64,000 bases of DNA from Chara braunii (lineage: Eukaryota; Plantae; Charophyceae). The notes beneath the pieces were generated by a model. The model had not been told where the DNA came from. It was given only the letters and a program-made list of their open reading frames with translations, and made no database searches. Both the position numbers and the translations under genes were made by a program. Each line of letters begins with the position of its first letter. Position 1 is the first letter of the stretch. Shown here piece by piece: positions 16,591 through 49,649 of this stretch. The DNA lies in NCBI GenBank assembly GCA_003427395.1, contig BFEA01000032.1, forward strand, positions 2,706,826-2,770,825, in the 5' to 3' direction.

Positions 16591-18375
16591 ATCTCACGGA
16601 AATAAAATCCAACTTCGTACGTAAATCGCCCCTAGTCTCTTTTTCCACATCTAATCTATAACTTTCAATAAAAGAATTAGGTGAGTATCGCGTGTGAAAC
16701 TCTTGAATAAATATCACAGTGACATGAATTTTATCACGACTAGCCATACATGAATACGCAAGCGGTCGAGAGGATGAAGTACTATGCAGTACCCACAACC
16801 ACGCGATCCTCAATAATTTTGCGGGCCGCATTCGACATGCGTCATGAAGGGTTAATCTCTTTACGCCAGACAATCCCAAGTACGATTGCGGGACATACCC
16901 TCTTTTGCACACTGCGAAAAGGAGGGGTAGGCGGTCTCGGCCCGTTGTGGCGGCCAAACGCCTCTAATCCTGAAAGTGGGGCTCCATCTTCAGAGGCCTG
17001 GAAACAAGTCATGGGGTTTGACTTTGACGGCCGCCACGGACCTCAACGTCCAACTATAAAAATCTAAAAAGCAGAAGTAAAAGGGACCTCATTTTCTCTT
17101 GGCACAAATTTACTCAATCCTTACGTACGATCAAAGTAGACTTTTCGTATACGCAAAATATAAATATAACGAGGTTATACAACACGAGGTGATCACTCTC
17201 ATAATCACAGTGTGATTTCTTTCAAAATATACACATAATCGCAAGCACATCCAAATCCAAACTTCGACTCATAAAAAAATACATGCACTCACACCAAGAT
17301 TCAATCATCGACATACCACTCACTACACGGGGTCAACTTCAATCAACCTCTGCACTCACACCCCTTGCCATATGCACACAAGCCTCAACCTTTGTCCAAT
17401 CTTCCAAAAGAATCCACTCAGTCTCTTTTTAAATGACCATTTAATAAAAGTTTAGGTAATAACCCAAAGAAACAATTCAAACCACAATGGTTAAGACCTT
17501 AGGTTGAGTAGCGAGAATGAGTTAGAGTTGAGCTGGAAACCGACCCGTTCTCAAAAGATAACAGAAGATGATCCTCATAGGGTCAACTTGAAGTTAGTCA
17601 AGCCACGAGATAATCTGAATGAAAATGACATGCAACACAACACAAGTCAGTGTCAAAGCTATGATTGAGTGAGTATGAAATACTCAACCTTCCTACCTCA
17701 CCTCTTATATCTGCCTTAAAATACTAGGAATTTCGGCAATATCTCCCCTAAAGCAAAGACATATTGTCAAACTTTCAAAGTTCTAAAATATTCTAACTCA
17801 TCTACATTTCAGAAAATTTCATCAGCGCTTCCCGTAGGAAAAATACCTTTATAGAATTTATATAGGACTGGATATGAAATTTAAAGGTGATCTTTAATTT
17901 TACAGAATCAAATTTTGTCTAACTCCCTGAATCAATAAAAATTTAGGCAGTATCTCTTTTAGAGAAGTAGGTTTCCCAGATGTATGCTAAGTCAGATATG
18001 AACTTAAGATAAAACTTGAATTTTGTAAAGACAAAATTTGACTAACTCCTTGGTTTTGCAAAGTTTTGTGTAACACTTCCCTTAGCAAAAATGTCTTTCC
18101 AAAATTTATACAAAGCCAAGTACAGGAAATAGACTTAACTTAAAAAATGCAAAAATCGAACCCACTTCTATAACTCCAGCACGTGCCGAACATCTAAAAC
18201 AACTACCTATCAAAGCTAACACTCATAACAAGTAGAGCTCACACTCAATCACATGCAAGTTCATACCACAATGAGTAAGTTGCCTCACAAAAATCCCAAG
18301 TTTTTAATCTCATAAATAGTTCATTGCCTCTCGGCTAGATAAACCTCAATACCCTTGCTTACATATGGCATAAGA

Positions 18376-19255
18376 AGGTTAAGCCAAACCGAAGCTACAT
18401 TGCTTAACCTTTGTCTTTGTATACACAAACAGAAGATACGACCACTTCTCTTTTCATTAGATAGTTAACTAGACCAAGCCGAAGTCACATTGTCTACTCC
18501 TGCTAAGTGTTTAATATCCAAGTTATAATATATTTTTAAATCTTTAATTTTTTAAAGACTAAGCCTGAGTCAAACCGAAGCCACATTTCTCGGTACGCTT
18601 TAGGTTACACTCTTTATATTCTTAACTAAGTATTTTCTTCCTTTTTGTAATAAGCTATAGTCAGACCAAACTGAAGCCACATTGTTTGACTAACTTTATT
18701 CAATAATAAAATTATAATATATTTAATATTTATATAGTAAGTTATATTTTCATATTCTTATTTTATGTGTATGACTTTAGACTAAACCAAACCGAAGCCA
18801 CATTGCGTAGTCATCATTCCAAACCTCCCACAGGAAAAAATAGTACTTGGATCTGACGAAAGCCACATTACCCAACTCTTAAACTCTTTCAACAGTCAAA
18901 TTACCACAAGAACAACAACCAGACCTGACCGAAGTCACATTGTCCGGTCCGAGTAAGGAACAGAATGACATAGCATAGTCAGCTAGGCCAAACACAAAGC
19001 CACATTGCCTAGCTGCATGGATAACAACTTACAGGGTATGACAATCAGACTTGATCGTGGCCACATTATCTGATTGTCAAGAAAACGAACAATACAACAT
19101 CTAAGCCCGACCGAAGTCACATTGCCTGGTTGTAAAGAAGACACGTCAACAAAAATTACAGCAACTAGACATGATCGAAACCCCATTGTCTAGTTGCAGA
19201 GGAAAACATAATAAACAAAGAGATCAGGTCAAACCGAAGTCATATTGCTTAACCC
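18376..19255 (-). repeat. Hairpin array A: 12 stem-loops with conserved apex (+ strand consensus CAAACCGAAGYCACATT)
   Basis: Units near 18376, 18470, 18561, 18658, 18780, 18845, 18918, 18980, 19040, 19093, 19161 and 19223, most flanked by a unit-specific inverted repeat. Confidence 0.9.
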
Positions 19256-20881
19256 TTTGGAGACCTAATCAATGCAAACAAAACTACATTTCTCCCACCT
19301 TCCCCCAATGCATCCCTCTTTGTCTGGATTCAAACAATGAAAATAGTACATAAATTTCACGTGTCCATTTCTTTTATTTACTCTGAATTAAGTTCTTAAT
19401 AAACCAGAATCTATAGGGATACACACATACAGAGAATTCAGCATAGAGAGGTATATTGATAGGGGATTAGCGAGTTTCACACTAGACAAAAATGGTGTAC
19501 CTGGTTGTTCCCTGTCTCCAGAACTCCTCTTGAGTTCCGGTAGAGCTCCCGCAATCAGTGGGTGGATCTCTCACAAAGTCGTGTTGCGGTCTTGTGGGTT
19601 GTAATCCCACCTTCCGCCTTCCTATTCGAACCACAAATTAGACTTAGAGTAAGAAGAACAAGAAGGGGTATCAGACTCTCGAGATACAAGAAGGTGCCAA
19701 CTCAACTCGCATGAGAGAGCCTTGGTATCTTGACGTGCCTGAGAGTTCCTCAATGGTGGTCAAACGCGTAACAAGTCAGCCAACCGAAATCAAACTGATA
19801 AAAAAAAAAACCGTGTAGCAGCACCCTGACGGCTCTCCACTTGGTGGCAATGATCCTCTTGCAGAAGCCTGACCTTCCCCTTTAACCACCGTACTCCATC
19901 CTCTGACTAGAATGCAGTTACGTTGTCGGGATAGAAACCCTGACAAGGGTATTTACCCTGTATTTTCAATGTCGGACACTGTCCGATTTCTAAAGTAAGT
20001 TTTGTTGAAAATATTTGGTCTGGTGAAATGGAAACACTGCTGAAAGGTATTCCGGCTTGTCTGCGATTGAAGAAATCTAATTTATGTATCCGTCTATCTG
20101 CCGACAGACATAACGACAAGGGTGGACGGTGTAACCGGACACTCTTACGTTGAAATAGGGCCGGAAAGAGAGAGACGACAGTGAAAACACTAAAATAAAT
20201 ATCGTAATAGCCGCGCGATTCAGGACTAGAAAGACAAAAAATTAGTCACGCCAGGGGTGCAGCGACGAAAGGAAGGGCTAACATGGCCAAAGTGTCGTGT
20301 CATTCCTAAAGGAAAGGACCGTCAGGGATCCGAGGGCAAACATATGGGATTGTCGGGCCTACGAGATTAAGCCTAGCCGGCAGGATGGCAGGGAGACTGC
20401 CTTGGGAAGGGGTAGGCAGACTGCATCTGCCTAGACCAGGGGAAGGCAGGACTGCGCTTGCCAAGGTCAGGAAATAGGCGGCCTACAGGGCCGCAACCCT
20501 TCAAATAGAAGGGTGGCAGGTATAGCTCACGTGATAGGAGCTAGCCCAGTAGGTACCGCACTCAACTTCCACCTAGCAGACGCTGGGATTGAGCCCGGCG
20601 ATATGGTACCAGAGCTAGCTCCTTTTTGGAGTGGCCAACCGTGCAAGCATGAAGCGTGACCATTTTCGGCCGCGAGATCGTCAGATCTCACGGTTGAAAA
20701 CGGTCGCGTGGATACATCATGGCCCCTGCACAAGGATGACACGCACAAATCGAGGGATGGCCCAATTTTTTCCGATTCCCTAATGGGAATCGAACTCGGG
20801 TCCGACACATCGGAGGGGAAGGGGAAGACGTCAGCAAGGCGTAGTACTGGCCGTTGGCTTATGCCAACAGCATTCTTACTG

Positions 20882-20914
<33 letters not shown>

Positions 20915-21645
20915 GGGAGAAGCAGACAACGCCAAATGACGCCTACAAAAGTGGCAGGGGACTTAGTGTCCCCAGAGGAAACCTGCAGGCGCCTATTGAA
21001 AACGGGCTGCCGTTTTTTTAGGTAAGACAATTTGTTTTTTTTTCTTTTCTTTTGTTAGATTTCTTAGTTATATTCTTAGATCTTCTTTTAAATTTTCTTT
21101 TTCAGATTTTTTGTTCGTTTCACGAGTTACTGGAAACGCCCTTTAATCGAAAAAGATAAACGGGCAATGGCCACCTACCTGCAAACTGGCCACGCCGTTT
21201 CCATTGACAGGTGGAGCAAAATCGAATGAACCTACGTTAGAAAACGAGGGAATACGCTGCCAACTGTGTGTGTGTGAGAAAATGAAGGGGGAAAACACTT
21301 ACTTGGCGTTTGGCCTCACGCAACTTCCAACAATAGGATGAGCGAAATTGGGATGAATCTTTGCCCAGAACATGGAAATATACGCCTACCACCAGCACCT
21401 TCCCATCCAAAGTAGCCTGTACTTCGCCAGCTTTGGTCTGGACCATGTGTTATAAGAACAGTGGAGTCAGTATGCTTGACCACACGTGAATACACATAAC
21501 CGTGCTATCACGGCGAAACCATATGTGAAATCTCGCCTCGACTTGAAACCTCCGAAAGATAAACATAAAGAAACGAGGTGCGCCACAGCTGCGGCTATGG
21601 CACCGCCCACCCTCTCCGCCAAACCAGAGAGTGAACGTCTGGCAA

Positions 21646-21692
21646 TCCCCAACTAGTTTCGGTTACCGCCAGTCGTAGCCTCATCAGGGGGA
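21646..21692 (-). ncRNA. Minimal type I hammerhead ribozyme of the Penelope-like element
   Basis: Minus strand: UCCCC-CUGAUGA-GGCUAC GACUGGCG GUAACC-GAAAC UA GUU-GGGGA. Stem I UCCCC/GGGGA, intact catalytic boxes, very short palindromic stem III. Confidence 0.85.
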
Positions 21693-22356
21693 ACGAGATA
21701 TCCGACAATTCCTACTTTCTCGCCTATATGCTACGTTGGTTGTCGTATCGACCATCCTAATTCGTAGTATCGGCCCCCCGCAGTGTCTTTTCCCGCCTGA
21801 TTCTTCCTCCGAGGTCCTGACCTGTTGCCTTTACTTCTTCGTCCGTTTTCCAACTTCGGCCTACCCCCACGCGGTCCGCAGTAGCTCAGTTCACAGTATC
21901 CTGACTCTCCAACATGTTTCTTACATCCGAAAAAAACGACCAGATACTCCTTTCAGGCCATTGCTCTTGGAAACGGCGCGATCTTACTAAGCGCTCCGAC
22001 ATATTTGCCTCATGGTTCATAGCGCCCCTGTCCTCGTGCCCTGGTCCAGTAATACCTCAGATCCTACAACGAGGACAAAAAGCAAAAAACAAAATAAAAA
22101 AACAAAAACAAAAAACACAGGTAGTTGCTCCGGGTTTGAAAAGGTTCCAGGTCCCCCGTGCTCCCATCCGGTAACCCTGTGGCTGAAGCCCCTTCTTCCC
22201 AGGTCCTATTCGGTCCATCAAAAACCATTACCCATAAGTAAATACGTAAATAAATAAATAAATAAATAGCTACACAGTTGCCTCGATAAATAATAATAGT
22301 CCATAAATATTCACTGATCCTTATCAGCCGTCCATATTTCTGTTTTCGCGCCTTCG

Positions 22357-24504: not shown

Positions 24505-24923
24505 CCCCTATTTTTGGCCCCATATTGTTCCCCTTTCCTAACTGCGATTGAGGGCCGGTGCAATCGAGGTGAGTGTTAGTTTTTTTTTTTTTTTTTTTTT
24601 TAAGTTATTTTCTCCCCGTTTCCTAATCGTTGTTGAGTGTTGGAACGGGGAGAGGACTGGAGCAGGTTGCAACAAGACCAAAAATTGAGAAAAAAAAAAA
24701 AAAAAAGCAACGAGGTAACTGCTTCGTGGGGGAAAAAAAAAAAAGAACGGCCTTTTTTAGGCTGTGTGGGTGCAAGCTCAACTGCCCACTCAGAACGGTG
24801 CGAATAATCGTGACCGTGAGATCTGGAATCTCGCGGCTCACGATACGCGCGTGAAGGAGGGATTAAGGGAGTTGGATGAAGGAGGTTGAAGAGAGGGAGA
24901 AGGGGAACGTGAGAGTTGGGAGG

Positions 24924-25070
24924 GGGAGGTCCTACTCCTCCCAACCTGCCAACTACCCTTCCCGTTTTCAGGGGAGGTCCTACTCCTCCCAACCTGCCAA
25001 CTACCCTTCCCGTTTTCAAGGGAGGTCCCACTCCTCCCAACCTGCCAACTACCCTTCCCGTTTTCAGGGG
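24924..25070. repeat. 48-bp tandem repeat x3
   Basis: GGTCC anchors at 24928, 24976 and 25024; unit GGAGGTCCTACTCCTCCCAACCTGCCAACTACCCTTCCCGTTTTCARG. Confidence 0.95.
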
Positions 25071-27308
25071 ACGTCCAACCCTCCTTAGCCACTATAAAAC
25101 AGGCAGTTGTCCCCAACTGCCACACAAAGCACTCGTGCTGCCAGTGTGTGACGAACACACTTGAGTGCTGCTGGCTACTGGAGGTGCTGCCAGAGGCAAC
25201 GTGGGAGAAGGCTGGAGGTCTGCAGAGGAGCGCGAGGAGAGGAGCTGGGCAGCTATAGCCAAGGCAGGGAGCACTCTGCTCCCCTCCCCTCTGGCTGGTG
25301 ATGATCCCATGGGACTGACCCAGGGACACTGCGGGACTACGACGGTATGACACTGAAAATTTGGGCCTGGGGCCCAAGTTTTATTAATTCTGGCCAGCCA
25401 TTTTTTCATCTTTTTTGGGGAGATGCTGCCAAAATTTTACAACGGCAGGTAAGCTGCAGCAAGGCTGTTGACGACGGTACCGGCGAATGGATCTACAGCA
25501 AGCCATTTTTCCACTTACATGAGGAGGTGTTGTCGAATTTTTACGACAGTGAACGACGAGCGGCTAGGCTATTGGCGGCGGCACCAGGCTGAACAAATTT
25601 GCGGTAAGTTATTTTCCCCACTTCTATGGGAAAATGCTGCCAAAAAATTTTAACGCCAACGGTAAAAATTTTAGCGGCGTTATGCTGCCGAAATTTAAGG
25701 CCGTCAGGATAAACTAAGTGGAAGGGAAGTGCTGACCGTCGGCGACCACGTTAGTAATTAGCGCTTTTGAGTGAGAATCAGTGGGGAGGTGACATTTATT
25801 TTTTATTTTGCGTCAACAAAAGGCGGGACGACGCGCAATTGTCCAAGTGAGACCAGTGGGACCGATGAGACACGTGAGTGGATCAGGCGGTACCAGCAAA
25901 GGAAGAGTGGTCCTTTATTTATTTTTTTTAGAGTCAGGGGAGACTGTTTTGACAAACGACATCATCTGGAAGTGAAAGAGGAGGACATGGGACTGCCTGG
26001 GACCACTTGGCACTAGTGGGCATCGCCGTGAACCACTCGGTACCAGTTGGTACTAATGCAGACCACTGGGTATTACTTGGCACAGACGTGGGGCCACCTG
26101 GAGCTAATTGGGACTTGTGGGACTTTCCGCCTTCGCGTTTGGGACTGCCGAAAAAAAAACTAGTGAGTCGGGTGTCGACCGGGACTAGTAACTTGCGCAG
26201 TTATACCTGAAGCAGCGGTTTCTTCGACAAGGCGCGCCAGTTACTTGAAGGAGGTCGCAGTCAGAACTTTCTCTACTGAAGGTCAATGGTTGGCATGAAT
26301 CCCTCACACTGTATGACCCTTCTCTTTTTTTTTTGGGTGCTCAGAAAAAGGTTGAAAGGAAAGAAAGTGTGACGAGGCATGCTTGTGTGGGACTCTGGGT
26401 CTGACTTGGGTGATGCTTTCGTGGTTGAACTCGTTGAATGTTGACTTTGCTTTGCATGCAGATGTGTGAAAAGGGAGAAGTACTGAGAAGGGAAATTCAA
26501 ATTTTACTGATTGAAATGGTGAAAACGTTGAATGTTTCTTCTATCTGTTCTCTGTGCTGTCTTCACCTATCTGATAAAGTAACAGTCAAACTATAAACGG
26601 GAAAAGTAACCGGGGTCGAAAAAGAAATGTGGAATATAAAGGAAAGGGAATGAATGAACTTAACTATCTTTGAGGTTCTTTTTCTATCCCGAATGACTCT
26701 CTCGACATGCCTCCCGTTCAAATGACTCTCGACTATATCTCCTTCCTTCTCTGCATTTCTGATTCGTCTAAGTTGTTTCCCTCGTGTTGAGGTCCAGGGT
26801 AGTCGATCTGATTCTGAGTTTGAGGGCTTCCTCATTCTAGAGGGAAATTTGGGCGGGGGTTCGTTGCTTTAGGAGCCAACCCTGTTATCGACCCGGAATG
26901 ACCGTTTTTATGGGGGAGTGCTTTGTGGATTCGATGGAGATGGTCCGACTTCTGAGATTTGAGCTTTCCTCTTGGACAAGGAAAAGGAGTACTCCAGACC
27001 ACTTCCTAGAGGGTGGGATGCACAACGAATAAACGATCAAAATTGGTTTTCCCGTGTACCTTTATACAGGGAAAAAACTGAAGATGAATACCCTTTTGAG
27101 TGACCACCTTAGGTGTCACTAACTCATGGAGAACTGACGTAAAAAGGAACCTAGTTCATGTACATATTAGTGTCTGAAGGAGTGTGAATAGACACTACTT
27201 TTTCGTGTCTGGACCGTGGTATAAGAATCACGGCTCAGAAAGAGGGATAAGGGTAAAGAGGTTTTTGCAGATAAATTTATATTGACAAGGTTATTGCTTA
27301 TCACTCAG

Positions 27309-28916
27309 ATGTCTACCGAAGAGGTGATCATCCGTTTTTTTAAAACACGTGAGGCGACGTCAAACTAGATAGTTGTGCCAACACGATCCCGCGTAGGCAT
27401 TGATGCAGGAAAGGCGTCTAGTCTAAAGACTGCACAAAGTTTTTTCGAACCGGGACGAATCGTGATTTTGGGACGGAAGTTTGATAAATCCTCCATTAAG
27501 TTATGTTTTTAGGGCAGAAAGTGAACTTCATATGGTGCGATACGATTTCGTGTCTTCTTTTCTTACACGAGATTTTGGGGATATGAATCTCGTCGTAGTT
27601 CATGAGGCGAATCCCAACAGGGAGGACGCTCCGGAGGTTAGAAGAATGTTTCTTCGTATTTTGCTATGGTTGAACGATCGACAATGACCTTTTTGTTTTC
27701 TTTACTATTTGAGACGGATTCGGGCCAACATGTTCAATATCCTTTATTCTGAACGGTTTTCGATCAACGCATTCGACGATCAGGAGTACGAAATCGGGGA
27801 GCATCTGCGTGAATGACATTTTGTATAATTAGAAACTGGTCAAGGAAAGGGAGTTAGAAAAATAAATATCTGAGGAAATTTGTTATGTTTTCATAAAAAC
27901 TACTCGTGTTTTCTCTTTTCCAGATGTCTACGGTAAGCGCCGTCATCATGCTCTTTCCAAGCAGTGAGGCTGCCGCAAGATATATAGTCTAGGCAAGAAG
28001 GTGAGGTGTAATTTTAGAACAAGTCGGTGGAATAGTCTATGATCCGATCGTCGTGTTTCTTCTAGGACGAGAATTAAGAACGGATCACGACACGACAAGG
28101 AACCCACCACGAACTTTTTTGTTTATCACATCGCCTTATCAACAGATTTTCGAATTAAGCTTCGTCAGAATTCTACGGTCGGACTGGGATAACCTACGCA
28201 TAGTATTTGGGTACAAGGATAATGATTTGCATGTCTATTTCAATCATGACATAAATTGATGTATCTGCGACTCGTTTTGTACTACAATGCCCGCGTACGT
28301 CCATTTGATGAGATCGAGTTCATGAAGCGAATTCGAGCCAACCGCTTCCAAAATTCAGGAAGAGAAAGGTTTGACATAGCCATCTATTGGAACCGGCTGA
28401 GTTATCTGCGACGACTCCTTGATGTGAACTTTACAGATGACGTGCAAGACAGTGATAGTAATTCTCTTTCACACATGTGAGGAGGCAAGTGAATGGATAT
28501 CAAGCACTGGAGACAACGGGATCGGCTCGATGCAGACAGGACGGTTAGTATACGATTCATCTGTCGTGTTTCCTGAAAGAGATAGACAACGATTCTAGCG
28601 AGGAAACTTGAGACGACCTTCAAGGAGTTATCTAATTAGCACTGCCTACGGATGGGACATTACTCAATATGGGTTCGCCCCTCGACGAGACTTTGACGGT
28701 GCATATCTGATGGTTCGGCACAACGAAGGAGCGGGGCGATACATCGAGAATATTCCTGAAGTGAAATGGTTATTCTTAGTTATTCTAGTGCATTTCAATG
28801 AGCAGCATGGACCCTTCGATTTTGGTCACCATTATCGTCGGACTCCAGATGACCGATTTCAGCACTTCAGACGGATTGTTTTCTCTGTGGTAGAGTTCGA
28901 GCGCGCGGAGCGCTGA
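27309..28916 (+). pseudogene. Three tandem decayed paralogs of an unknown ~160-aa protein
   Basis: Units ~27309-27815, 27924-28480 and ~28540-28916 share ILGRKF/LLGREL/ILARKL and FLxIL..xN....PF......RRI.AN.F; in-frame stops and frameshifts. Confidence 0.65.
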
Positions 28917-30118
28917 TTGTTTTCGCTGATCAACTCTTAATTGTGGTTCTCTTGTGAGAAGATGGACGACGGACGACGCGATCTTACCATAGCGAGATAT
29001 CTTTTTGTTCGCAACACACACGAGGGCGATCTAATCAGAGAAGCGAAGCGACTTTTGCAGGTTCGAGATGACACTCCTACCTAGTGGATCGGTTTCATCG
29101 AGATACTCTGAAATGACGATGGATTTTTCCCTACCACTCGTGCGGATTTCCGGGTCGATACGGCTCAGACTCCTGAGGAGTTTTATGGTTATAACTTGTA
29201 TTTCCACCGCGTAAGTAACCTCCAATGTCTCTCTCAAGTCATTGTCAGTATTAAGATTACCTCGTCCGATAGATGTTTCGACGTCGTCCGGATCCGGGAC
29301 ACAGAGACCCGACACTTATTTGGACTGAGTCGGCCTTTTCGAGTCATAGTATGAAGACTAGCCTCGCAGATGGTCTCCCTCTATGGTACTCGAATTGTTA
29401 GAGTTATGCGAGGTGGATGGATGACGAACTTGGTATTCGACGACGGCGAGCTTACGCGATTGGATCTGTTGGAGGCTCAGACACGCAGAGGACGACATAT
29501 TTACCAGGGCTAGACATCGTTTTCTGGAAACGTTATCTGATTTACCGAAGAACACCTCGCATAGACTAATCCCGTTGAAGAAGTCATATGACTTATGACT
29601 TCACGAGGTAATCTCAAAAACAAAAATAAAAACACTCCATGTAGATAGGTCTGTCGGATGGATAGTATTCGGACTACCTCGATAATTTCACTATCATGCT
29701 TTGGCATTGAGGGGTAAATACATAAGAAAAGAAGAATAAACAAATACGTTTCATCGGTCTGAAGTTACCTTTAGACGTTTTTGCAGGAAAACTGAAACGG
29801 GCCCCTGAAATCAAACATGAAAACTATAGGCGTCAAATTAAAGAATTGAGGGAATTTTCTCTTTTCATTTTCAACAAGAAAGTTTTCTGTTGTTTTGAGA
29901 TTACATCAACGACAACGAGGAATTACGTTAGCATGATTTTTTCATCAGACCAAATCAATTATATTAAAAATTGTGTTGTATTTTCACATCGGTGATTGTT
30001 TAAATGATTGACTGAGATGATGACTTATATAATATATATATAATATATATATAATATATATCGTCAAATAGAACTGCCCGGTAAACCGTAGGCAGAGAGG
30101 GAGAAGAGGACAACAAAC

Positions 30119-30200
30119 GAGGGGTTGTGACAAACTGTTTCGTCGGAGTTCCACCGACTCATCAGGAGGCTGAACCCTCAACAGTCTGCAGAATCCCCTC
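30119..30200 (-). ncRNA. Type III hammerhead ribozyme
   Basis: Minus strand: CAGACUG-UU-GAGG GUUCAG CCUC-CUGAUGA-GUCGG UGGAACU CCGAC-GAAA-CAGUUUG, plus outer GAGGGG/CCCCUC pairing. All three stems pair. Confidence 0.9.
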
Positions 30201-30382
30201 ACTGATTACACTGTAAATGATAATCTACCTTAACCAAAATCAAAGTAGACTATCACTCACCCACACCAGATNGAAAACTCTACAGACTGTCGGTTCACAC
30301 CCCATCACAAGCCAGCAAAACATCCACGAAACAAAGAAAGGTCTGTCACAGCCAAAAAATACACTCCAGACACACCGCTGGC

Positions 30383-30386
<4 letters not shown>

Positions 30387-30453
<67 letters not shown>
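30387..30453. repeat. (TA)n microsatellite
   Basis: Direct reading. Confidence 0.95.
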
Positions 30454-30456
<3 letters not shown>

Positions 30457-30569
30457 CTTTGTTAACGACATGTGTGACTTCACCTTGTTAAGTTATATAT
30501 ATCTATATATATATAGAATATATATATATATGTATATTGTATAGGACTAGGGTTGAGTTGTGGTTTCCA

Positions 30570-31050
30570 TGCTTGATTGAGACCGCCCTAGTCAACCGGT
30601 GTATGCTTCATCCTTAGGAGATCATCGTTATAAGTGACGAACGACGTCCGGGTTCAATAGGCGTTTTAATCGCGTGTACCTATATTACAGCGATCGAGCA
30701 AACACCCTCGGCTGACTCACCTCTGCAATTGCATGTAAAAGCTTTCGCACGTGGGTCAGTAGCTCGGTGAGGATACACCCCTAAGGGTGGTGACAGCCAC
30801 TTAGGGAAGAAAGTTTATGCCCCGCGGGAACCTATCCTGTCGTAGGGGACCGTGGGATGTACAGCTGGCGCACCCGGCTAGAGTGACGTGACCGAGGTCG
30901 TCTCGACGACTCGTGGGACTATTTATGCTTCGTCCCCAAGTTGTCTCTCTTGTTTTGTTTTTCGTCTAACTCCTACGTGACATAGTCGGGAGGGCTCCCG
31001 CCTCGTCGCAAGAAAAGGCGGGGGCCGATGCGCTCGACAACGCAGCCTGG
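30570..31050 (-). repeat. Conserved ~400-bp non-coding module, copy 3 (inverted, more diverged)
   Basis: Reverse complement aligns to 13230-13650 (CCCCTACGACAGGATAGG, CACCACCCTTAGGGG, GCAATTGCAGAGGTG, CCGAGGGTGTTT). Confidence 0.75.
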
Positions 31051-32343
31051 AAGGGCTGCGCCAAAATAGAGCACACGCCCATGCTCTATTCGAGATGTTA
31101 GCCAAAATCGGTGAAATGTTGTGAACCCAACAACTGTGCGCAGCAACACGTCATCGTGGTGATGCATAGTAATGCATAACAGCGAGCAGCGGCGTGCATG
31201 GCAAGATGCGCGACAATGTGCACTGTAAAACACATAGTAAACACAACAAGCGGTGCATGCACTGCGTAAAATCCAGCAAGGTGGCAAGGCACAACAAACT
31301 TCAGCAAAGCAAACTATGCAGCAACTCAGGAAAACAACATTGAGCAGCAATACTCAACATACAACAAACCTATCAGAACAGTGAAACCGCAAGGCTCAGC
31401 AAGGCAACGAGTCAACAACTGCCACCAACTAGGAACACCGACGACGATCACAATGAACAACACTTCAGATGGGAATGTGACAAACAGCACCCGCCATTCT
31501 GAGGGAAACTCCGAAAGGAACCAGCTACTCAGACAGTTCGATCAGTCTTTCGCCCCTATACTCAACTCTAAAGAACGCAAACATTACAGTATCGCTGCGA
31601 GCCTCCACCACATTCTTTGGCCTCACCCTTCTCAGGCATAGTTCACCATCTATCGTGTCCCATTAGTTATATACACCCTGGATCCTGTCACAGCAGATTG
31701 TGATCGGAGTCACACTCAGCTTTGAGCAGCAGCAACGACCGAAGTACACTCAGATGGCGATCACACTGTGTATTTGTAGTGAAACTCAGATTCAGCTAAA
31801 CTACTGCCCCCTTTGTTCCACACTGTCTCTCAGTTCACGATAAGCCTGTTTCCGTCCTAACCCCCCCTCCCCCTCCCGACTAACGTCGACAGACCACAAC
31901 TACCGGATTGCCTATGACATGGAACCAGGCCGTACTCACACAATCAACAGGGGCAGCTGGCATAGCAAAAATAAGGATGGCTGCACGCGAGCCCGACCAA
32001 TCAGCAACGGCCCCGCGGAGCAGATTCAGCGGGACCCCTGTGATGACCAGCAACGGGATCCAAGTGCAAAACTACGGATCTGGTTGGCGATTCATACGTA
32101 AGTCAAAACTTTTTTTATTGCAGTCCCCACTGGATCCAGACTCACGTTTGTAATTCAACAGAACTGATTTTATTGCGTTCGCCATTAGATTCAAACTCAC
32201 GTCTGTAATTCAACAGTTTTATATATGCATTAACTGAGCAGCCTCCCAATGTACAAATTTGAGAATGAATCTTCTGCTAGAACATGGAAAGATACACCGC
32301 GACCTCGTGCAGAGGTCGCGCGACACGAATCACACCACCTGGT

Positions 32344-32438
<95 letters not shown>

Positions 32439-33355
32439 CCACACACACACTGCAGCTGCCCCCTGTTCACGAAGGCACCTGGCCACTAGCTATGCCGGGT
32501 TCGGTCGAAGCCCAGGGGAAAGAAGATCACGAGGCTTGAAGTAGCGTACAGCCGGGGCGATCACAATGATGACGACCAGAATCGTGCTGTCCTCCAAATG
32601 TGCAAAATGAGAATGAATCTTCTGCTAGTTTGTGACCGGGTACATTGGTCCGCTGAAAATCAACATAATGGCGGGCAACGATTGGTAATAACCTCTTGAT
32701 GAAGATCCCCTATGACAAACAGGTAGGTCCCTGTTTCTCCCTCTTTCTTCCTCGTCGTTCCTTGTTTGCCTTCTTCCTCGTCGTTCCTTGTTTGCCTCCT
32801 CGTCATCTCCCCATCTGCTTTCGTCCTCGATCTCACCTGCTTTCCTCCTCGTCATGTCAATCGCGTATCATCATCCCTGTGCGTGCAACCTCTCTCTTCT
32901 ATAACGCCCAGACTATCATTCGAGCCTCAAATCTAAAGCTACCATTCAACTCGCGGTGGCCCAACCCCCGTTTAGCCTTTTATTTCATTCGATTCCATCA
33001 AGAATTGAGTGAAAACTAAATTTCTTACTCGCACCATCTCTCTTTTTTTGCTACTTTTGCGCAACCCTTTTTCCTACTAACCTTTATTCCACTAATCTAA
33101 CAGCAAAACTAACCTTACTAACGAATTCGCCCCTGCACAAAACCCTTATCTACCACCCTGGTTCGCCCGAATCTGCTAGGAATCGAGCAGACCACACAAC
33201 TTTCATCCGCCATGCTCGTCTTCGTCCTCTGTTTGCCATCAACCCTCCCTTATGCTATTGCTGCACCTAGCGCTCTACACTCTGTCAACAGCCCAATCAC
33301 ACAACAACATCAGAAGGAAGCCCGCTGCCCTCGAGAGCTCAGCCTCAAATAGCCC

Positions 33356-33360
<5 letters not shown>

Positions 33361-33394
<34 letters not shown>

Positions 33395-33432
33395 TAAAGC
33401 TCCATCTATTGGTGGAGAGCAGCACCTGCATA
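33361..33432 (-). mobile_element. Very short LINE-3'-end insertion with poly(A)
   Basis: Poly(T) 33361-33393 followed by GCTCCATCTATTGGTGGAGAGCAGCACCTGC. Confidence 0.75.
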
Positions 33433-36242
33433 GCAGCAGCAGAGATGGTGGCTCCGCTGCAGTCAGTCTTGCCGGAGTGAGGTATAGTGGATTGATGGGG
33501 GGGGTTCTGAGTCCGTTTCTCAATTTTGTTTAATCATGAAGATTGTCATAGACATGTCTGAAGTAGCTCCAATTTTTCCGATGGCCCCAGTATCTCAATT
33601 TCCAAAATTCCATCCTTAGGCTAATTACACTTTTCTAGTAGTTCCTTTGTCTCATTTTCATGAATTTTCCGATGAAGTTTTCTGAGCGTACTCTTTATGG
33701 GAGGCTGGGCCCGGTTCCCAGTTTGTGCCAATTTGTGAGGATATGGTTGTATCTATGGCGCGACTCACCACAGCTCCGACCAGCGTCGTCTCGGCAGCAA
33801 TCCTTCATTGTCCCGTGGAAAGCCCACCCCAAGACCTCCCCAGATCTCACTACCAGACCTCACCCTCCTGAACCGCAGGTTATAGGGCAACACCCCAGCA
33901 TCGGTCAGCGTCGTTCTGGCATCGAACAACCGCAGATCACTGAGTATAACAGCATTGAAGCCACGTAAGACGCGTTAGTAGGGATCCCAGAGTCCTAAAG
34001 AACATTCCTAGGACCACTAAGCACCCAACTCTTTTTGGGACATTCGAAAAGCTTTAGAAAAATATAAGGGTGGGTGAGCAAGACTAAATCTGCCTACTAT
34101 CCTAGATTCCCCCTTCCAACAGATGGGGCGCCGGTCCAGGCTTTCAGTCCTCGTACCAGAACTCACTTGATCTCATACCCCCTTCTGCTAGGGTAACAGG
34201 GCACCACAACCCTCCCCAGTACCGATCAACCTAGCTCTGACGGACAGGAATTGCCTTTCCCCCTCTACAATTCCCTTAGAGGGGAGCCCCTAAACAGGTT
34301 ACAGGGTCAAAACCCCGGCGCCAACTTTGTCGGACGATCTGGTTATGCCTTCCTCCCTCGGCATAACTTCCCAGGCCTCAAGCTCCCCCTGGGTTACAGA
34401 GCAGAGGCTCCAGCACCGGCCTGTGTCGTCCCAACATCGTCCTTCTAACCTACTTACCCTAACAAACAACCCTTTCTGTTGAAAATCCCTTTGCTACCTT
34501 CCTTCCTTTTAGTCTAGCTTCCCCCCCCTTCGGCTCACTGTGTAGCTATCGAAATCACTCCTTCCCTCAATAAAAAAGTCCTAACACACTGCTATAAGCA
34601 GCCACCCCCTTGCCTTCTCTCCCCGCCCGCCAGTACTGATCCGACCCTAAATCCATCTGGCTAAGAGACAACAATCCCCCAATACCGCCTCCCCCCTCCA
34701 AGGATAACACCTCCCACCTTGTGAAACCCTCACGGGGGGAGGCTCTAACCCTCAAGGAAGACCCCACACAGCAAGCCACAATTACGCCCCTCAAGACCAG
34801 GAGTTGAGATTTGCAAATAGAGAAAGCCAATCCGAATCAAAAATTACCGCACGGTGTTATGATTAACAACCATAAGGTTTTGAAAAAATACTGCAGTAGC
34901 CTACTTTTAGGCATCGGAGATCAGAACAAGTTTGTATCAGAAATCAAGAAAAAAATCAAGACCATAAGATCGATGGTAAGGGAAAACTATTGAGTGACAA
35001 AATTTACGAGAAATTATACGAAATTTAGGTTTAGGTATCCATAAAGGATTTTTGAATCAGATTCCCAAACCACGGTTTGAGAAACGTTTAACAAAGATGT
35101 AAGGCACGGAAAAGTTTAAGAAAATATTTTCAGAAAACCATAATATCGAGAGGATCCACCAACGGAAAGCTAAATCAGATCATCACCATTAGAAAGAAAA
35201 TTCAGAATTACAACCTAGAAAAACAAACGAGTGAATTCATAATAGAGAAAACAAAATTCAAAAGACCTAATTAGATCATCATCCTTTGGTAAACATCAAG
35301 GGCATGCGGACGTTAAGAATCAAGAGAGAGAGGGCAAACAGGCAATACAAAGTCAAACAATCAGAAAAACTATTGAAAACGAAACCCTGAGATCATGTTG
35401 ACGTGGAACCTTTTTCACCCGCAGCAAGCTTCACATGAGATGGCGATGTCCTCCTTCCTCCTTGAAGCGATATCCTCTATGAAGAGTCCTCGAAAAACCC
35501 CTCTGCCTCCCTTTCATCCACCTACCATCACTCGAACCAACCCCCACCACCTTCGGGAGGGAAACATCAAGCCCCCCTCCATTTGCCGGCTAGAACAGCT
35601 TCAGCTGCCGACCACAGTGTCGACGCCAACAACAAAGGTATCAACGGTCATCCACAACTCTACAAGGTACTGGATGGTGAAGTAAAGCCTCGTCGAGCCC
35701 GTCAAGGAGTTACCTCAGGAGATTCAAGCCCTCAGCAGAACCCTGTCTGCCACCTTACGCAGCGTAGACGAAAGAGAGCGGAGGAAACTAAACTACCAGC
35801 CATGAACCCTCATGTGCCATCGCCAACCTCTCCTCACGTGGCGCCACCACGATGCATCCTCGTCACCATCGTTCTCGTCGTCCTCCGAAAACCCCAAGCC
35901 ACTCACCCACCTCACCTCCCTCCCCCAATATTGCAGCGCGCCGCCGCACTGCACCCTCCATCCCGTCGTTGCTGCCGCCTGACGTCACTTGGTCCGTCCG
36001 CGTGAACGGGGCGCAACGCTCCCGGTCGTGCTGCGCCCCCGACCTCCGTAAACGCACTTGTCAAGTCCCCACCTGCAGGTTAATTCCAACATGGCTCGCA
36101 GCAACATCAAGCAGCAGGGTTGTTACAGCCTTTTCTGTACATTTTCAGTCTTAACCAAAGTCCTGAGGAACTAACATTGGGAACGACCTCAGAGTATCAT
36201 CTCGGAACTGACCGCTTGCTTTACAATTTTTATTCACCTAGT

Positions 36243-36460
36243 CCCATCTAGATTCGAACACAGGTCTGCACTTCAACAATTAAGGTGTGCGACAACTCAG
36301 CTACGCCAGTTGGTACCGGCATTGTCATGGAACCAGTCACAACCCCGATATCAGATAACCCAAAACCATAGTATTTTGTTCGCCCGTTTCCAGTGGAGCT
36401 TGAACTCAGGACTGTATTTCAACAATTCATAGGTGTACCAACTAGGCTACAGTAGCCCCC
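36243..36460 (-). repeat. Two tandem degenerate tRNA-like (Pol III A/B box) units
   Basis: Minus strand: TAGCCTAGTTGGTACACC..AATTGTTGAA..CCTGAGTTCAAGC and TAGCTGAGTTGTCGCACACC..AATTGTTGAA..CCTGTGTTCGAATC. Confidence 0.55.
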
Positions 36461-38844
36461 TTGATATGAGACTAAAAATAAAAATAAGAATAAAATTTAG
36501 AAAAATTTGAAAACAAAAGGAAGGGGGAGCAACCCATGGCATCTCCTTCGTCCTGCCGATTGGACCCACGGTCGGGACCAACAATAAAACTAAGGACGAG
36601 CAGTCTCGTCGGACCCTTTAACCCTTTGATTCCTTCAAGTTGCTCCACCGCTCTATCGTTGCCTGTCGTTGGCCTTAATCCTTATCCCTCCATATTGAAA
36701 ATCCAATATCGTAACCAATAGCACTAAGCCCAAGGCCGATTACAACAAAAACGATTTTTAATATAAATGGCTTTTGTGTTGTATACGGCTTACCGAAACG
36801 CCCCAAGGCCTCAACTTAGCTTTCCGGTCGAGCCCACGACCGCCGAATCCCGGCACCCGCCCCACAAAGGGTCCGATTTTCCTTATAGTCGTTGTGGCCG
36901 TCGTGCACGCCGCCCATTACGCCAAAGTCATACCACCGTAAGGTCAATCAAAATGCCTTACCGCGTCGTGTATTAAACGAATCCATGTCCCTTCAAATAC
37001 AATTTTAAATAGTCACCCCTAAAAATGTCACGACAATGATGGTCAAACCTGACGTCGGCCATAGGAATGTCGTCTTTGTGCGTGCACATGCGCCATAAAC
37101 ATGCACGCACAAACAAACATATCAGCCAAAGAGAAAAATAATTTAAACCTAGTTTAATCAAAACAATAAGTCCACTGACAATTGTATCGGTTCCTTTACA
37201 TCAACAAGAAAAATCGTGTGCGCCTTAAAACCACGCGCCCACGCACCCCTTATTTTTCCTCTTAACTAACGGTTGGTTACAAAGAGAAAACTGGTTGCGG
37301 CTCACGTAGCTCACCAAATTTTCGTATCCAATTTTTAATTAAAGCCTTTGTTTCTATTATTTGCAAAAACCAGGGCAAATACCCTTGTAAGGGTATTCTT
37401 GTCGACAGCGCCATAATGGGCAGGGTGCGAATGCTCAACGCATAGGGGAAACCATTTTGTGTTGAGCTAGAACGTGGAATGTCCTTGACAATAAACTCGA
37501 ATTCCAGGTTCAGGACCAATGTCTCACCAATTAATTCAAATAGCAAGGATGAGTGTGCGCATTATCACGATTGTCGCGAAAATTATGCGCGCTCACTTTC
37601 ACTTAGCCATCATGACCACGATAAAATAAAAAAAGTTCAATCAGTCAAACAAAGAGGTGTGATATCAGACGATCACTCTCACAACAATATCGTGGTTTGT
37701 CCATATGCATTCACACAATACACAGACAATCACCAAGGCTCAATCCATAATTTTTCATTCATACATGTGATCACACTAAGTTTGAACAACAACATCGCAC
37801 GCACTAAGGGAGTCAACTTTACCATTCCATGTGCCTCATACCATGCCTTATGCACATAAGCCCCAACCATTTTTCCACCATCCCACAACAAAGACATTAA
37901 GTCTTTAAAAATGATCATTTAGAAAGAAGTCTGAGTGAAAATCCTAAAAAATATAAAAACCCACAAGGACTAAGGTCTTAGGTTGAGATGCAGAAGCAGG
38001 TAAGTTGCGTCGTAAACCGATCTATTATCAAGGGATAACAGAAGTGTGATCCTTTGTAGGATCAGGCAGAACAAATCGAACCTTCAATCGAATACATAGA
38101 TTTGCATCACCATACATGTTAAAAAAAAAACCATACTATGTTTAAAACAAATAAAGGACATGCTTCATTTGTAGCCTAACTCCTCTACTAACTTTTCTCT
38201 CTCCTTTCTCTGATTGGAACCAGAGGTTATTGGAAATTTTGGCAGCATTTCCCCTAGACCGGGTGGATTGCCAAATTTCTCATAGCAGAAAATAATCTAA
38301 CTTTTCAAATTTCAGAAAATTTTGGCAGCGCTTTCCGTAGGAAAAATGTTAAAAAAGAAAATTCACGAACCCCTAAAAACTAACTCTTGGATATTTGTAA
38401 AAATTTCGGTAGCGTTTCCCATTGGAAAAGGAGGCTGCCAAAATTTATGCAAAGTTGAAAATGCGAAAGCAAAATACAACTATACTTCAGACTAACTTCT
38501 GGCACTCAGTTGATAGTTAGAACTGTAAATAGTCTACACGATCTTTCTTTTGAATGTGGTATCGTGAGCTAACATTAGTCCTAACTTCTAGTAAGGTCAG
38601 TCATATTTCATCTCAAGTTTCCCTTCAATCATCTATCTTACCTGTCTGTAGCTCCAACACTCAGCGAGCATCTAAATCAACTAAGTTATCGAAAAAATAT
38701 CCCAAATGATAAACCAAAAACACACACACAAGTGAACACAATAACATCCTCTCACTAACCTTCAAGTTTCTTTCCAGATCATATAGTTTGTTTCAGTCTC
38801 ACGTTAGTACCTTTTTACCCTTCCTTACATAAGGCATAAGATCA

Positions 38845-39900
38845 GACAACCCAACTTATGGGTATGACTAACCTGCCTAAATCACATGACTAAGACACAC
38901 CAACTTATGGCATGACAGACTTTTGCCTAGACGATTAACATAAGGCGTATGACCAGACCGCGCCAACTTATGATGAGGCTGATCAGGCTTAATATTTGTC
39001 ATACACAAATAACTGAGTTGCCTCAACTCATAAGGATTTCAACCTTTGTCTGAACAAACGACAAAAGACATATGACTAGAACACACCAACTTATGGTGTG
39101 ACTAGCCAGTCTAAACAATGACATATAGCATAAAACTAGATTACCCAACTCATGGGTAGTTCAACCTGCTTAGACAAACTACATGCGAGTATGACTGAAC
39201 AACCCCCAACTTATGGGTCCGTCCAACCTCCGCAGCACAACTACACTCAACAGGTAAGATCACACCTTCATTCTCTCTTCCGACATATGGTACGGTCACT
39301 CCAACTTAGGGAGATCCCCAACCAAGTCTCAATTATGTTTAAAAAATAGTCCAGTTTTGTATTATCTTTCTCAGCATCTTGTTTCATCATGGGCATAGGA
39401 CTGAACTACCCAACTTATGGATGAGTCCAGCATGTCCAAAGTTACCTTTCAATTTTATATTCCAAATGTTATTTATTTTCTGTTTTTGTCTTCTACCGAA
39501 CTATATGGTTAAATCTCCCAACTTATGGCGCCTAGCCTACCAATGATATACATAATACATAATTATATCATATTTTATGCTCTGGTTCCACTTATGTTCA
39601 CAACTCATGACTTTGTCACATCAACTTATGGTGCGACTAACCTATGTCTGTGTCCCCCTCATAAATAAACATAGAACCGAACATAAGCACTTAGAATGCG
39701 ACCATCTTTGTTCAATAACCAAAAGAAACAGGGATTTTGATTACCCTATCCATGGGTCTCATCCTCCGTTCAGAAACCCCAAGAAAAACACGCGACTGGA
39801 CTGTCCAACTTATGGAGCGTCTCAGCCTATAAAAGTCAAGCAAACAACCCATCATACAAAAAGGAAACACAACACTGAGCCTATGCACTTATAACGGACT
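38845..39900 (-). repeat. Hairpin array B: ~13 stem-loops with conserved loop (+ strand CCAACTTATGG)
   Basis: Units near 38851, 38900, 38964, 39024, 39086, 39145, 39206, 39301, 39410, 39518, 39622, 39805 and a degenerate one near 39886; e.g. CACACC-AACTTAT-GGTGTG, TACCC-AACTCAT-GGGTA, CTCC-AACTTAG-GGAG. Confidence 0.88.
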
Positions 39901-41248
39901 CAGCCTTTGGTTAACCCGGTCAAACGCAGGCAAAACCAGCCTTCCTCCCGTCTTCCCTCATTCATTCTGTTTGAATTCATACAAATAATCTGAATTCTCA
40001 CACATACTTATTTGATTAACTTTTAAGATGAAGTAATTAAATTAAAACAAATAAAAGTAGTAAGTTGTCTTAATCATACCTTCAGAGTTTTCAGACATAT
40101 AAAGAGTTTTATATTTTAGGGGATGGGATCACACGCGTAAAACGATCATTATATATGTTCTTTCCTTGCCTCCAGAACCCCGTTTAGGTTTCGACAGATC
40201 TCATGCAATCGGTGGGCTAACTTCCCACAAGGTCTTCCTGCGGATTACGGGTTGCAATCCCGCCTTCCGCTTTCCTCTCCGAACCAATCAGACTAGACTT
40301 AGAGTTAGAAGGGCAGAGATAAAGGTTATTAAGTCTCTCAGATACAAGAAGGGTGCTCTCAAACTTGCGCGAGAGGGCCTTGTAAACTTCATTCGTCCGA
40401 GGGTCCCGCAATGGTGGCAAAAAAAAGCAGTAGAAATGGTTAAATCACAGCCAGAACGTAGAGTACCAGCCCCTGAAAGTCGTCCAAGTTGAAGCAGCAA
40501 CCCTCCTTGTAAAGCCTGATCACCCCTTCAAGTCATACCACCATTCCCCCTTACCAAATCGCAGCTATGCAACCTCGAAAAAAACGCTTTCGAATAGAGC
40601 ACACCCCCATGTTGTGTGTCCGAAATTGGATTTAACGCGGGTTTCGCGTTAAAAAATTCAACGCTCGTTGAATTCGCGTTCAATCCCCGTTTGAACGCGC
40701 ATTGGACGGGAAAAAACGGGTTCCGCAATAATTTTTTTCCTAGGCTAAACATAATCGAAAAAAAAAAATAAAAAAAAATGGGGTCGTAGATCGTTTCGAG
40801 GTCTACGACCCCATATTTTTATTTTTATTTTTTGAGCTTTTAATATATTTTTAAAAAATCAAAAACATAAGCACAATGAAAAAACAAAAGCAAGAAATGA
40901 CACGTCTTTTTTTTTTTGGGTTTCACAGAGATTTTTTAAGGGCTTAAACAAAAACAGAAAAATATATATATATATATATAGGGTTGTAGATCTTTCAAAG
41001 ATGTACAACAAAATATTTTTTTTTTATTTTTTTTATAACCTCGTGTATTTTTAAAAAAATCAAAACCATAAACAACATATTTTTTGGCCTGCATGGCTTA
41101 GGTAATCTTGCTGGGTAGACTCCCTGTTGGGTAGACTCCCTGATTTGGCCTGCTTCGTTCATTGTTGTTGTAACCACCACCATCAGATCATTTGTGATCT
41201 GATGGCTGGGAAGCACTCTGCCGTGATTTCCAGTGGGAGGTCTCTGTT

Positions 41249-49560: not shown

Positions 49561-49649
49561 AGAAAGAAAGAAAGCAGAATTTTGTTTGTCCCATTTTTTT
49601 CATGGCTGATATGGAGTTGAGAGTCCTCCTAAAAGGAAAAGCAGGTATT

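Follow-up and report, generated by a model that had tools for sequence, protein, structure and literature searches.

Two diverged copies, A and B, of what is almost certainly one abundant non-coding mobile element lie in the window, the whole stretch of 64,000 nucleotides that was analysed (Table 1). Each carries an array of hairpins whose tips are conserved within the array and unrelated between A and B, and the basal stems of both arrays share one consensus. The reading that we favour, with a probability of roughly 0.45, is that of an RNA-level protein-binding array whose tip varies from one subfamily to the other, irrespective of where the reader is encoded.

Table 1. Positions in the window of elements A and B, their arrays and flanks, and related copies
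Feature	Position	Strand	Basis or remark
Element A	16091-19968 (3,878 bp)		TG...CA ends, 5-bp terminal inverted repeat, read depth
Candidate 6-bp target-site duplication of A, left copy	16085-16090
Candidate 6-bp target-site duplication of A, right copy	19969-19974
Conserved non-coding left block of A	16171-16836		common to C and D, absent from B
Flank of A left of the array	17186-18375		homologous to 37667-38841
Second, looser hairpin-like repeat set in A	17727-18000		conserved in B, echoed in E
Array A	18372-19258	-	12 hairpins; motif matches, arm-swap test, unit alignments
Splice-donor-like AG/GT at 19501/19500	19495-19503	-	lies 240 bp upstream of the A hairpins
Conserved upstream block of A	19501-19764	-	family members show minus-strand RNA in RNA run X5
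Element B, recognisable part	37667-40594		sequence comparison
Second hairpin-like repeat set in B	38233-38450
Array B	38831-39835	-	11 hairpins, tip CCAUAAGUUGG on the minus strand, G-U-rich outer stem
Conserved upstream block of B	40157-40421	-	without AG/GT where the donor-like site of A sits
Copy C, a further family member's left end	13151-13902		starts TGAAA
Diverged left-block fragment adjoining the left end of A	15817-16111		E 1e-4
Copy D, inverted truncated left block	30554-31040	-
Element E, inverted stretch resembling the second repeat set	25385-25700	-	weak (E 0.011), relationship uncertain

The initial annotation described A and B as collinear, with conserved flanks and a block of about 250 bp, and this description holds. 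Segments 17279-17575 and 37761-38053 (70%, E 2e-21), 17785-17844 and 38289-38347 (85%), and 19508-19764 and 40162-40421 (73%, E 6e-29) pair in blastn searches. Alignment of the flanks, on which that annotation had staked its interpretation, is far above chance: local alignment scores are 142 for the left flank and 163 for the right, against 25.4 ± 2.4 and 21.7 ± 2.0 in 100 shuffles. The array-proximal 18-mer is identical at 17/18 positions between 18358 (A) and 38824 (B), and both arrays begin immediately after it. The arrays themselves align to each other at chance level (25 against 23.6 ± 2.4, 100 shuffles). The conserved flank blocks were also folded to a consensus, but from 2-3 sequences and without a control, and these folds are left out of the argument.

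Units of array A are composed of a 9-bp variable stem, an asymmetric internal loop starting with AAUG and a short stem with a UUCG cap. An exact cUUCGg, well known to form a stable tetraloop in RNA, is present in 7/12 units. With up to two mismatches allowed, the motif has 14 plus-strand matches in the window, 12 of them inside 18390-19235. We used 12 anchors in A and 11 in B; looser motif matching gave 8 extra matches that were set aside as misregistered or degenerate, the one at 18474 being re-anchored at 18480. The stems of A form 74/108 Watson-Crick pairs against 49.4 ± 5.3 in arm swaps, none of which scored as high (0/20,000). Two-sided changes are observed in 9/9 outer pairs, and covariation is 0.587 against 0.394 ± 0.038 in the control (0/500). 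Unit-to-unit identity is 74% in the cores and 40% in the arms. Two inner-stem columns alternate G-U with G-C or A-U, with minus-strand pairing in 12/12 and 11/12 units. Against an RNA reading, the outer stem holds 11 G-U and 8 C-A. That the A stems vary between units yet remain paired is strongly supported.

The motif of array B has 12 plus-strand matches in the window with at most one mismatch, 11 of which lie inside 38851-39805; a possible degenerate twelfth unit was detected with the unit HMM at 39009-39053 (E 0.053). Stem pairing in B is weakly above chance (p about 0.02-0.03), with 22/44 Watson-Crick pairs against 14.6 ± 3.3 in arm swaps (400/20,000) and, in a second test, 51/77 against 44.5 ± 3.0 (129/5,000). 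In the fold derived from all B units the covariation term is -0.07, and 2/9 pairs show two-sided changes. Two outer columns are mostly G-U and are paired in 11/11 and 10/11 units. The G-U excess of B does not exceed that of arm swaps (18.5%). Identity between units is 93% in the cores and 34% in the arms. As for the 12-13 hairpins at intervals of about 50-120 bp initially described for each element, A agrees (12 hairpins, 56-121 bp apart) and B departs from it, with 11 hairpins and a wider spacing of 49-184 bp.

Comparison of the two arrays separates the tips from the stems. The tips show 6.52 matches against 6.67 ± 0.48 after permutation (597/1000 permutations at least as high), and the unit HMM of each array has no match in the other, in agreement with the earlier claim of unrelated apices. 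A matrix built from the A arms scores 5.6 on the B arms against -0.7 ± 1.0 (0/5,000; 2/2,000 with permuted columns) and 3.5 against -0.9 ± 1.1 (0/5,000; 12/2,000 with permuted columns). This shared basal stem consensus suggests that the arrays likely descend from one ancestral unit whose tip was altered, rather than from separate insertions. The proposal of a conserved architecture with a motif replaced array-wide therefore stands for the tip and fails for the whole motif, the basal stem consensus being common to both. Two tip types were observed, each in a single full-length copy. Spacers are 0-133 bp long and mutually dissimilar, neither array A nor array B contains a repeat according to Tandem Repeats Finder, and the only spaced arrays in a window-wide scan are A and B, plus one microsatellite. 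The tips are apparently under sequence constraint, the cores being kept while arms and spacers diverge.

The family of element A has a very high copy number, with a very high summed read depth in its conserved blocks from 16223 to 19997; it is this family that read depth and array sharing cover. Summed depth over array A is far under that of the conserved blocks (257-1,535). The non-array linkers are equally low (398-1,916), so that the low array depth reflects subfamily divergence. The A array is also found on other contigs with 82-84% identity, in one case contiguous with the flank, and the joints there are those expected if units had been gained and lost. Other copies thus inherit the array with its flank, which for A removes the independent MITE or satellite insertion that the initial annotation had held against itself.

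Its TG...CA ends and 6-bp duplication make A a probable solo LTR or non-autonomous integrase-type element, and an LTR-type element, likely a retrotransposon's long LTR, is the slightly favoured classification. In a chance control, 37/400 random window pairs (9%) match the duplication, TG...CA and 5-bp inverted repeat of A. Plant Gypsy elements usually make a 5-bp target-site duplication. Copy C starts with the first five bases of A, at the offset homologous to the left end of A. Searches for a target-site duplication of B, C or E and for the ends of B identified none; there is no clear primer-binding site or polypurine tract beside the ends of A within the window, nor a convincing pair of long terminal inverted repeats with a duplication for A or B. 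Some other identities were rejected. An Rfam scan of 12000-42000 (E up to 1) gave 8 matches, none in A or B, which disposes of a retrozyme or ribozyme element. The ENE triple-helix element has a U-rich internal loop between two helices, and the internal loops of the units are short and purine-containing. Letters needed for kink-turn, C/D-box or upstream-AUG readings are, by eye, not kept across units or strands.

The raw folding energy is lower on the minus strand in 23/23 units. This preference was discounted because composition control removed most of it. After dinucleotide control the mean z is -1.49 (plus) and -1.62 (minus) in A, where neither strand is favoured, and -1.54 (plus) and -2.09 (minus) in B, a slight minus preference. 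DNA folding parameters give z similar to RNA parameters, and z falls below -2 in just 4-5/12 A units and 3-4/11 B units. Folding by itself fixes neither the strand nor the level, RNA or DNA, at which the hairpins act.

Transcript reads add information upstream of array A. The donor-like site is seen as the loose-end consensus of other copies in X1, X5 and X6 and may be used as a splice donor. X5 (107 reads, none with at least 95% identity) contains minus-strand RNA just upstream of the array and spanning this site: first-mate-plus depth at 19394-19695 is 14.5 and 7.7 against 0.3 and 0.24, and the RNA/DNA ratio there is about 4 to over 100 times that of other conserved blocks. X6 is mixed at 19394-19544 (34.6 against 22.5), favours plus-strand RNA in most bins across 16374-18336 and includes 29 plus-strand-RNA reads within array A (18641-18649). 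Little RNA covers the array in either X5 or X6, and strandedness is assumed for these libraries. A possible second-exon start suggested by 17 X5 reads has no counterpart within the window. On balance we lean towards the hairpins functioning as RNA.

The hairpins likely fold in minus-strand RNA, and every subfamily would thereby have a multivalent docking signal of its own for a protein. The minus-strand transcript would start near 19,850 and cross the donor site at 19,500, so that the array would lie in RNA kept only when the intron is not removed. Stems would present the tip and need only pair, the protein reading the tip sequence, and binding might mark unspliced RNA for export or packaging, by analogy with a retroviral response element. 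Each lineage may have re-amplified one variant unit, spacers and stems then diverging, as described for VANDAL motifs. That the reader is encoded by the element family itself is less likely than not. The most far-reaching scheme, a swappable RNA code in a retrotransposon family, with about a dozen hairpins on a shared stem scaffold in each subfamily, array-wide tip exchange and a co-evolving element-encoded protein that exports or packages only its own unspliced RNA, is unlikely.

The best surviving alternative, itself somewhat unlikely, is that the arrays are DNA-level cis elements, i.e. same-orientation motifs on duplex or extruded DNA recognized by an element or host factor with an anti-silencing or enhancer role. 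Stems would then belong to the DNA site. The absence of a strand preference after composition control, the similar DNA-energy z and the scarcity of RNA over the array are all compatible with this. However, a duplex site needs no unit-specific complementary arms, yet the arms covary, and the G-U-type alternation in four columns together with the UUCG cap fits RNA better. Precedents exist on the DNA side, the available text describing, for VANDAL21 and VANDAL6, motifs packed densely in one orientation within introns and upstream regions and distinct from family to family (PMC5735166) and family-variable palindrome regions in Sirevirus LTRs (PMC4728375).

A second alternative, which we consider quite unlikely, overlaps the favoured reading in its RNA step and differs on the reader: the RNA hairpins would be read by the host (splicing or stability factors, Dicer-like processing), or would act by structure alone, with tips that drift or escape silencing. 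The shared basal stems could be the feature truly recognized, and a donor-like site that other copies conserve immediately precedes the array. At 9 bp the stems are rather short to serve as Dicer substrates, which weighs against processing. The 93% identity of the B tip against 34% in the arms fits a sequence-specific tip reader instead. Hairpin-derived small RNAs have been proposed for the palindromes of Sirevirus LTRs, according to the available text (PMC4728375).

This host-reader alternative also draws on the outcome of searches for an element-encoded protein. Codon periodicity is absent in 5/5 block comparisons (p 0.09-0.74). Pfam searches of 40 ORFs gave 3 matches, all in a LINE at 2.3-6.4 kb and none in A, B or E, and those of 23 frames and pieces in and around A, B and E gave nothing. 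Homolog searches returned 0 matches among 18 candidates for the left-block ORF and among 38 and 42 candidates for two E ORFs, and an Atlas search with one E ORF found weak look-alikes only. Around A, B and E, these Pfam and homolog searches thus identified no autonomous element, Gag, accessory or partner protein.

A neutral origin is improbable. Here a unit would have been amplified in each subfamily and template switching, an established means of correcting quasi-palindromes, would have kept the arms complementary without selection. The joints observed in other copies and the weak folding of many units agree with such a process. Nevertheless, the tips are conserved amid unrelated spacers with no tandem repeat, and neutral decay would not spare them. 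Finally, the coincidental arrival of independent MITEs or satellites in the same slot is highly improbable and, for A, largely refuted: the shuffle-level alignment of the arrays and the low depth over array A speak for it, against which stand the common basal stem, the A array present in other copies and once contiguous with the flank, the equally low linkers and the identical starting point of both arrays.

The pattern of change points to function, since stems only need to pair, tips are kept and two tips sit on related stems. It makes directly testable how an element distinguishes its RNA from a relative's and limits parasitism by non-autonomous copies. If cognate proteins exist, the hairpins could yield new orthogonal RNA tags. 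A swappable RNA code, if true, would parallel VANDAL/VANC at the RNA level and could supply orthogonal pairs of hairpin and protein; arrays acting on DNA would represent a further VANC-like case of moderate interest. A literature search of openly available main texts, mostly judged from titles and the beginnings of abstracts, found no description of covarying hairpin arrays with exchanged tips or of the element itself.

Several known systems share some of these features. Retroviral RRE/CTE and the phage MS2/PP7 operators are alike in logic only, a stem presenting a tip that is read, orthogonally between relatives. RRE/CTE mark unspliced RNA, and natural MS2/PP7 operators are single sites with known partners. 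Neither sequence comparison nor Rfam gave an RRE/CTE- or MS2/PP7-like match in A or B. The TG...CA ends of A, with their candidate duplication, are presumably unlike those of Helentrons. Helentron HINE and DINE elements also have differing central repeats between conserved ends, but these repeats are satellite-like and tandem in the available text (PMC9659126). A Helentron/HINE identity was rejected, a head-to-tail tandem array being absent and the spacers dissimilar.

Family-specific repeat arrays are common in plant retrotransposons, their origin and function being given as unknown (PMC11963269). Retand/Tat and Ogre Gypsy elements carry such arrays in a fixed non-coding slot, and antisense ORFs are found near the Retand arrays (PMC11963269, PMC9659126). 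These are, however, tandem repeats arranged head to tail between pol on one side and the 3' LTR on the other; the available text describes no conserved structure, and the word 'hairpin' is absent from that of PMC11963269. LTR palindromes of Sireviruses (Ty1/copia) are multi-copy, hairpin-capable symmetric motifs of family-variable number and sequence, as far as the available text goes, but are GC-rich with a CGG-CCG core and conserved arms (PMC2829016, PMC4728375). The palindrome motif is described there as upstream of the TATA box, within a CpG island. In A and B, by contrast, it is the tip that is conserved, the arms being variable and covarying; the spacers are rich in A/T, and there is no sign of a copia internal region. 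The Sirevirus LTR motif was itself rejected, its CGG-CCG core being absent from the unit alignments and the arrays lying in 35-39% GC windows.

VANDAL/VANC is, by analogy, the closest precedent for a family-specific code. The available text describes motifs set densely in one orientation within introns and other non-coding regions, with array-wide change between families by repeat re-amplification (PMC5735166). Comparably, A and B have 12 and 11 units on one strand, and their tips are unrelated. VANDAL systems also have a Mutator-like transposase; no Pfam family turned up among the ORFs and frames scanned in and around A, B and E. VANC differs in being an element-encoded protein that reads 8-9-bp duplex-DNA motifs inside tandem repeats (PMC5735166), whereas A and B have hairpin units with covarying stems that are not tandem repeats. 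Family-specific arrays as such are already known in plant transposons; what this analysis adds to the initial annotation is a shared basal stem consensus under unrelated tips.

Elements A and B, two diverged copies of one mobile element, are collinear from about 17,186/37,667 through 19,960/40,600. The homology of the sequences flanking their arrays, proposed in the initial annotation, is confirmed by alignment scores of 142 and 163, vs 25 and 22 for shuffled sequences. The arrays themselves align at shuffle level (25 vs 24). Their tips, the conserved apices of the hairpin units, are unrelated as had been claimed, and unit models of A have no match in array B or vice versa. The expected 12-13 hairpins spaced by 50-120 bp are found in A (12 units, 56-121 bp) but not in B, which has 11 units at a wider spacing (49-184 bp); these counts omit 8 looser motif matches judged misregistered or degenerate. 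A scan of the whole window identified no other spaced array, and Tandem Repeats Finder detected neither array A nor array B. The paired-array observation is real and far above chance.

On the minus strand, the A unit comprises a variable 9-bp stem, an asymmetric loop starting with AAUG, a 3-4-bp stem and a UUCG cap (exact cUUCGg in 7 of 12 units). The stems are unit-specific because swapping arms lowers the number of Watson-Crick pairs from 74/108 to 49.4±5.3 (0/20,000), and two-sided changes occur at all 9 outer pairs, although such shuffle counts are not strict probabilities since the structure was picked on the same, mutually related units. The B unit, also on the minus strand, carries the tip CCAUAAGUUGG atop a stem that is rich in G-U and interrupted. 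Covariation is weaker in B than in A (p ~0.02 for the inner and 0.026 for the outer stem), and the covariation term of the B consensus fold is near zero. Identity between units is 74% (A) and 93% (B) for the cores vs 40% and 34% for the arms.

We estimate at roughly 45% the probability that the arrays are tip-specific binding platforms acting at the RNA level. As long as the putative intron after 19,500 stays in, a minus-strand transcript would retain the array, the stems would present the tips for reading, and a protein would bind these multivalently and route the array-bearing RNA to export or packaging; that this protein is encoded by the element and co-evolves with the tip is rather doubtful. 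The attractive but hypothetical RNA-code reading rests on two full arrays. Over 19,394-19,695, RNA run X5 shows first-mate-plus depths (minus-strand RNA in most stranded libraries) of 14.5 and 7.7 vs 0.3 and 0.24. Loose ends occur at 19,507 (73 contigs in run X1, 22 reads in X5 and 85 in run X6) and read AG/GTAAC, a donor-like sequence, where A itself has AG/GTAC; 17 further X5 reads diverge into other letters from this point and may be spliced. This donor-like site is missing at the corresponding place in B. The X6 strand signal is mixed, plus-strand RNA being favoured left of array A and at one spot inside. The reads derive from other family copies, and RNA over array A is sparse. A TATA-like box sits in a block that ranks among the most conserved of the A family, and plus-strand RNA predominates around it in X6. 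Transcription may therefore start at both ends of the element.

That the motif arrays act at the DNA level is unlikely, though it is the most probable of the alternatives. Composition-controlled folding z-scores are similar for both strands and for DNA energies, so that folding cannot decide between RNA and DNA; a lean towards minus-strand RNA comes only from G-U-alternating columns and the UUCG cap. Codon periodicity is absent from all blocks examined, and searches for protein families and homologs of ORFs in the A, B and E regions found none. An RNA function exerted through host machinery or structure alone is quite improbable.

Reads of two DNA and two RNA runs were aligned to 15,770-20,270 at 80% likeness. 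Summed depth over the best-conserved blocks of A (16,223-19,695) is 30,000-67,000, that of contigs identical to the A locus is 8-13, and this points to a family of thousands of copies, the summed depth not being itself a copy number. Depth over array A (257-1,535) is comparable to that of non-array linkers (398-1,916). Array A is also present in other copies, at 82-84% identity in other contigs. One array-bearing contig begins within the flank, at 18,350. Joints within array A in other copies are consistent with both gain and loss of units; the arrays are probably under selection, and neutral amplification plus template switching is a very unlikely origin. Independent insertion of the arrays is extremely improbable.

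The array-wide replacement of the recognition motif holds for the tips but not for the basal stem. An A-arm weight matrix scores 5.6 and 3.5 on the B arms vs -0.7 and -0.9 at random anchors (0/5,000 each), and column-permuted matrices do as well in 2/2,000 and 12/2,000 cases; a basal stem consensus is therefore common to both arrays. The simplest history would be a single ancestral unit whose tip changed and which was re-amplified in each lineage.

Element A is best interpreted, with slight preference, as a 3.9-kb solo LTR. The chance rate of its combination of end, inverted repeat and duplication is 9%. Its boundaries gain support because copy C, the left end of another family member, opens with A's first five bases at the homologous offset and contigs with a variant at 16,123 terminate about 35 bases off. 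As neither PBS nor PPT was found in the window, A could possibly be a non-autonomous integrase-type DNA element. In B the left 1.1 kb has been lost and neither end can be recognised; a stretch like the reverse complement of A's right end lies to the left of B, with no further homology there. Region E includes donor-like sites, an inverted array resembling the second, looser set of hairpin-like repeats of A and B, and decayed ORFs for which a homolog search found none. E may be a cargo-bearing relative.

The window is eukaryotic DNA rich in repeats, with microsatellites and assembly gaps. The 716-aa ORF has Atlas look-alikes at 0.97, chiefly in Streptophyta and Chlorophyta, and looks like a Chlamys-type Penelope RT. 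The hammerhead, scoring below the gathering threshold, sits in a 320-bp insert flanked by TA microsatellites, probably a Penelope-like fragment. Chlamys elements are reported from streptophyte algae in the accessible text of PMC8557442, and the CxC motif and the hammerhead among TA repeats fit that description. These features suggest a host of charophyte type. The U6 and rRNA fragments are probably retroposed pieces.

Features of the window and their coordinates
Feature	Position	Strand	Remarks
LINE	2.3-6.4 kb		
Copy C	13151-13902		
Repeat family	15470-15763; 49312-49604		internal hairpin, GC-rich terminal hairpin (by eye)
Hairpin	40759-40833		similar to that of the repeat family
Element A	16,091-19,968		TG...CA ends, 5-bp inverted repeat, 6-bp duplication
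TATA-like box	17055	+	
Array A	18372-19258	-	
U6 snRNA 3' fragment	20715-20771	+	
ORF, 716 aa	22357-24507	-	without Pfam match; CxC motif by eye
Tandem repeat	24923-25084		48-bp unit, 3.4 copies, 94%; adjoins TATA-like box at ~25,095
Region E	25350-29990		
Decayed ORFs of E	27,000-29,600	+	
Bases in E	29,977-29,986		10 bases identical to A's right end
Type III hammerhead ribozyme	30132-30187	-	44.2 bits, gathering score 48.5, E 1e-6
Large-subunit rRNA fragment	31521-31659	-	140 bp
Stretch beside B	37362-37410		~45 bp like reverse complement of A's right end (76%, E 5e-4)
Element B	37,667-40,594		
Array B	38831-39835	-	
MITE-like long palindromic inserts	41246-41520; 51230-51533; 51578-51739		79-88% self-complementary

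Rfam gave no match within A or B, and searches of the accessible literature found no report of covarying hairpin arrays with subfamily-exchanged tips. Arrays that occupy a fixed slot and vary between families are described, in the accessible parts of the sources, for Sirevirus LTR palindromes (PMC2829016, PMC4728375), for Retand and Ogre tandem arrays and Helentron central repeats (PMC11963269, PMC9659126) and for VANC motifs (PMC5735166). For none of these do the same parts mention stems that vary and covary, as in A and B, around a conserved tip that is swapped from one subfamily to another.
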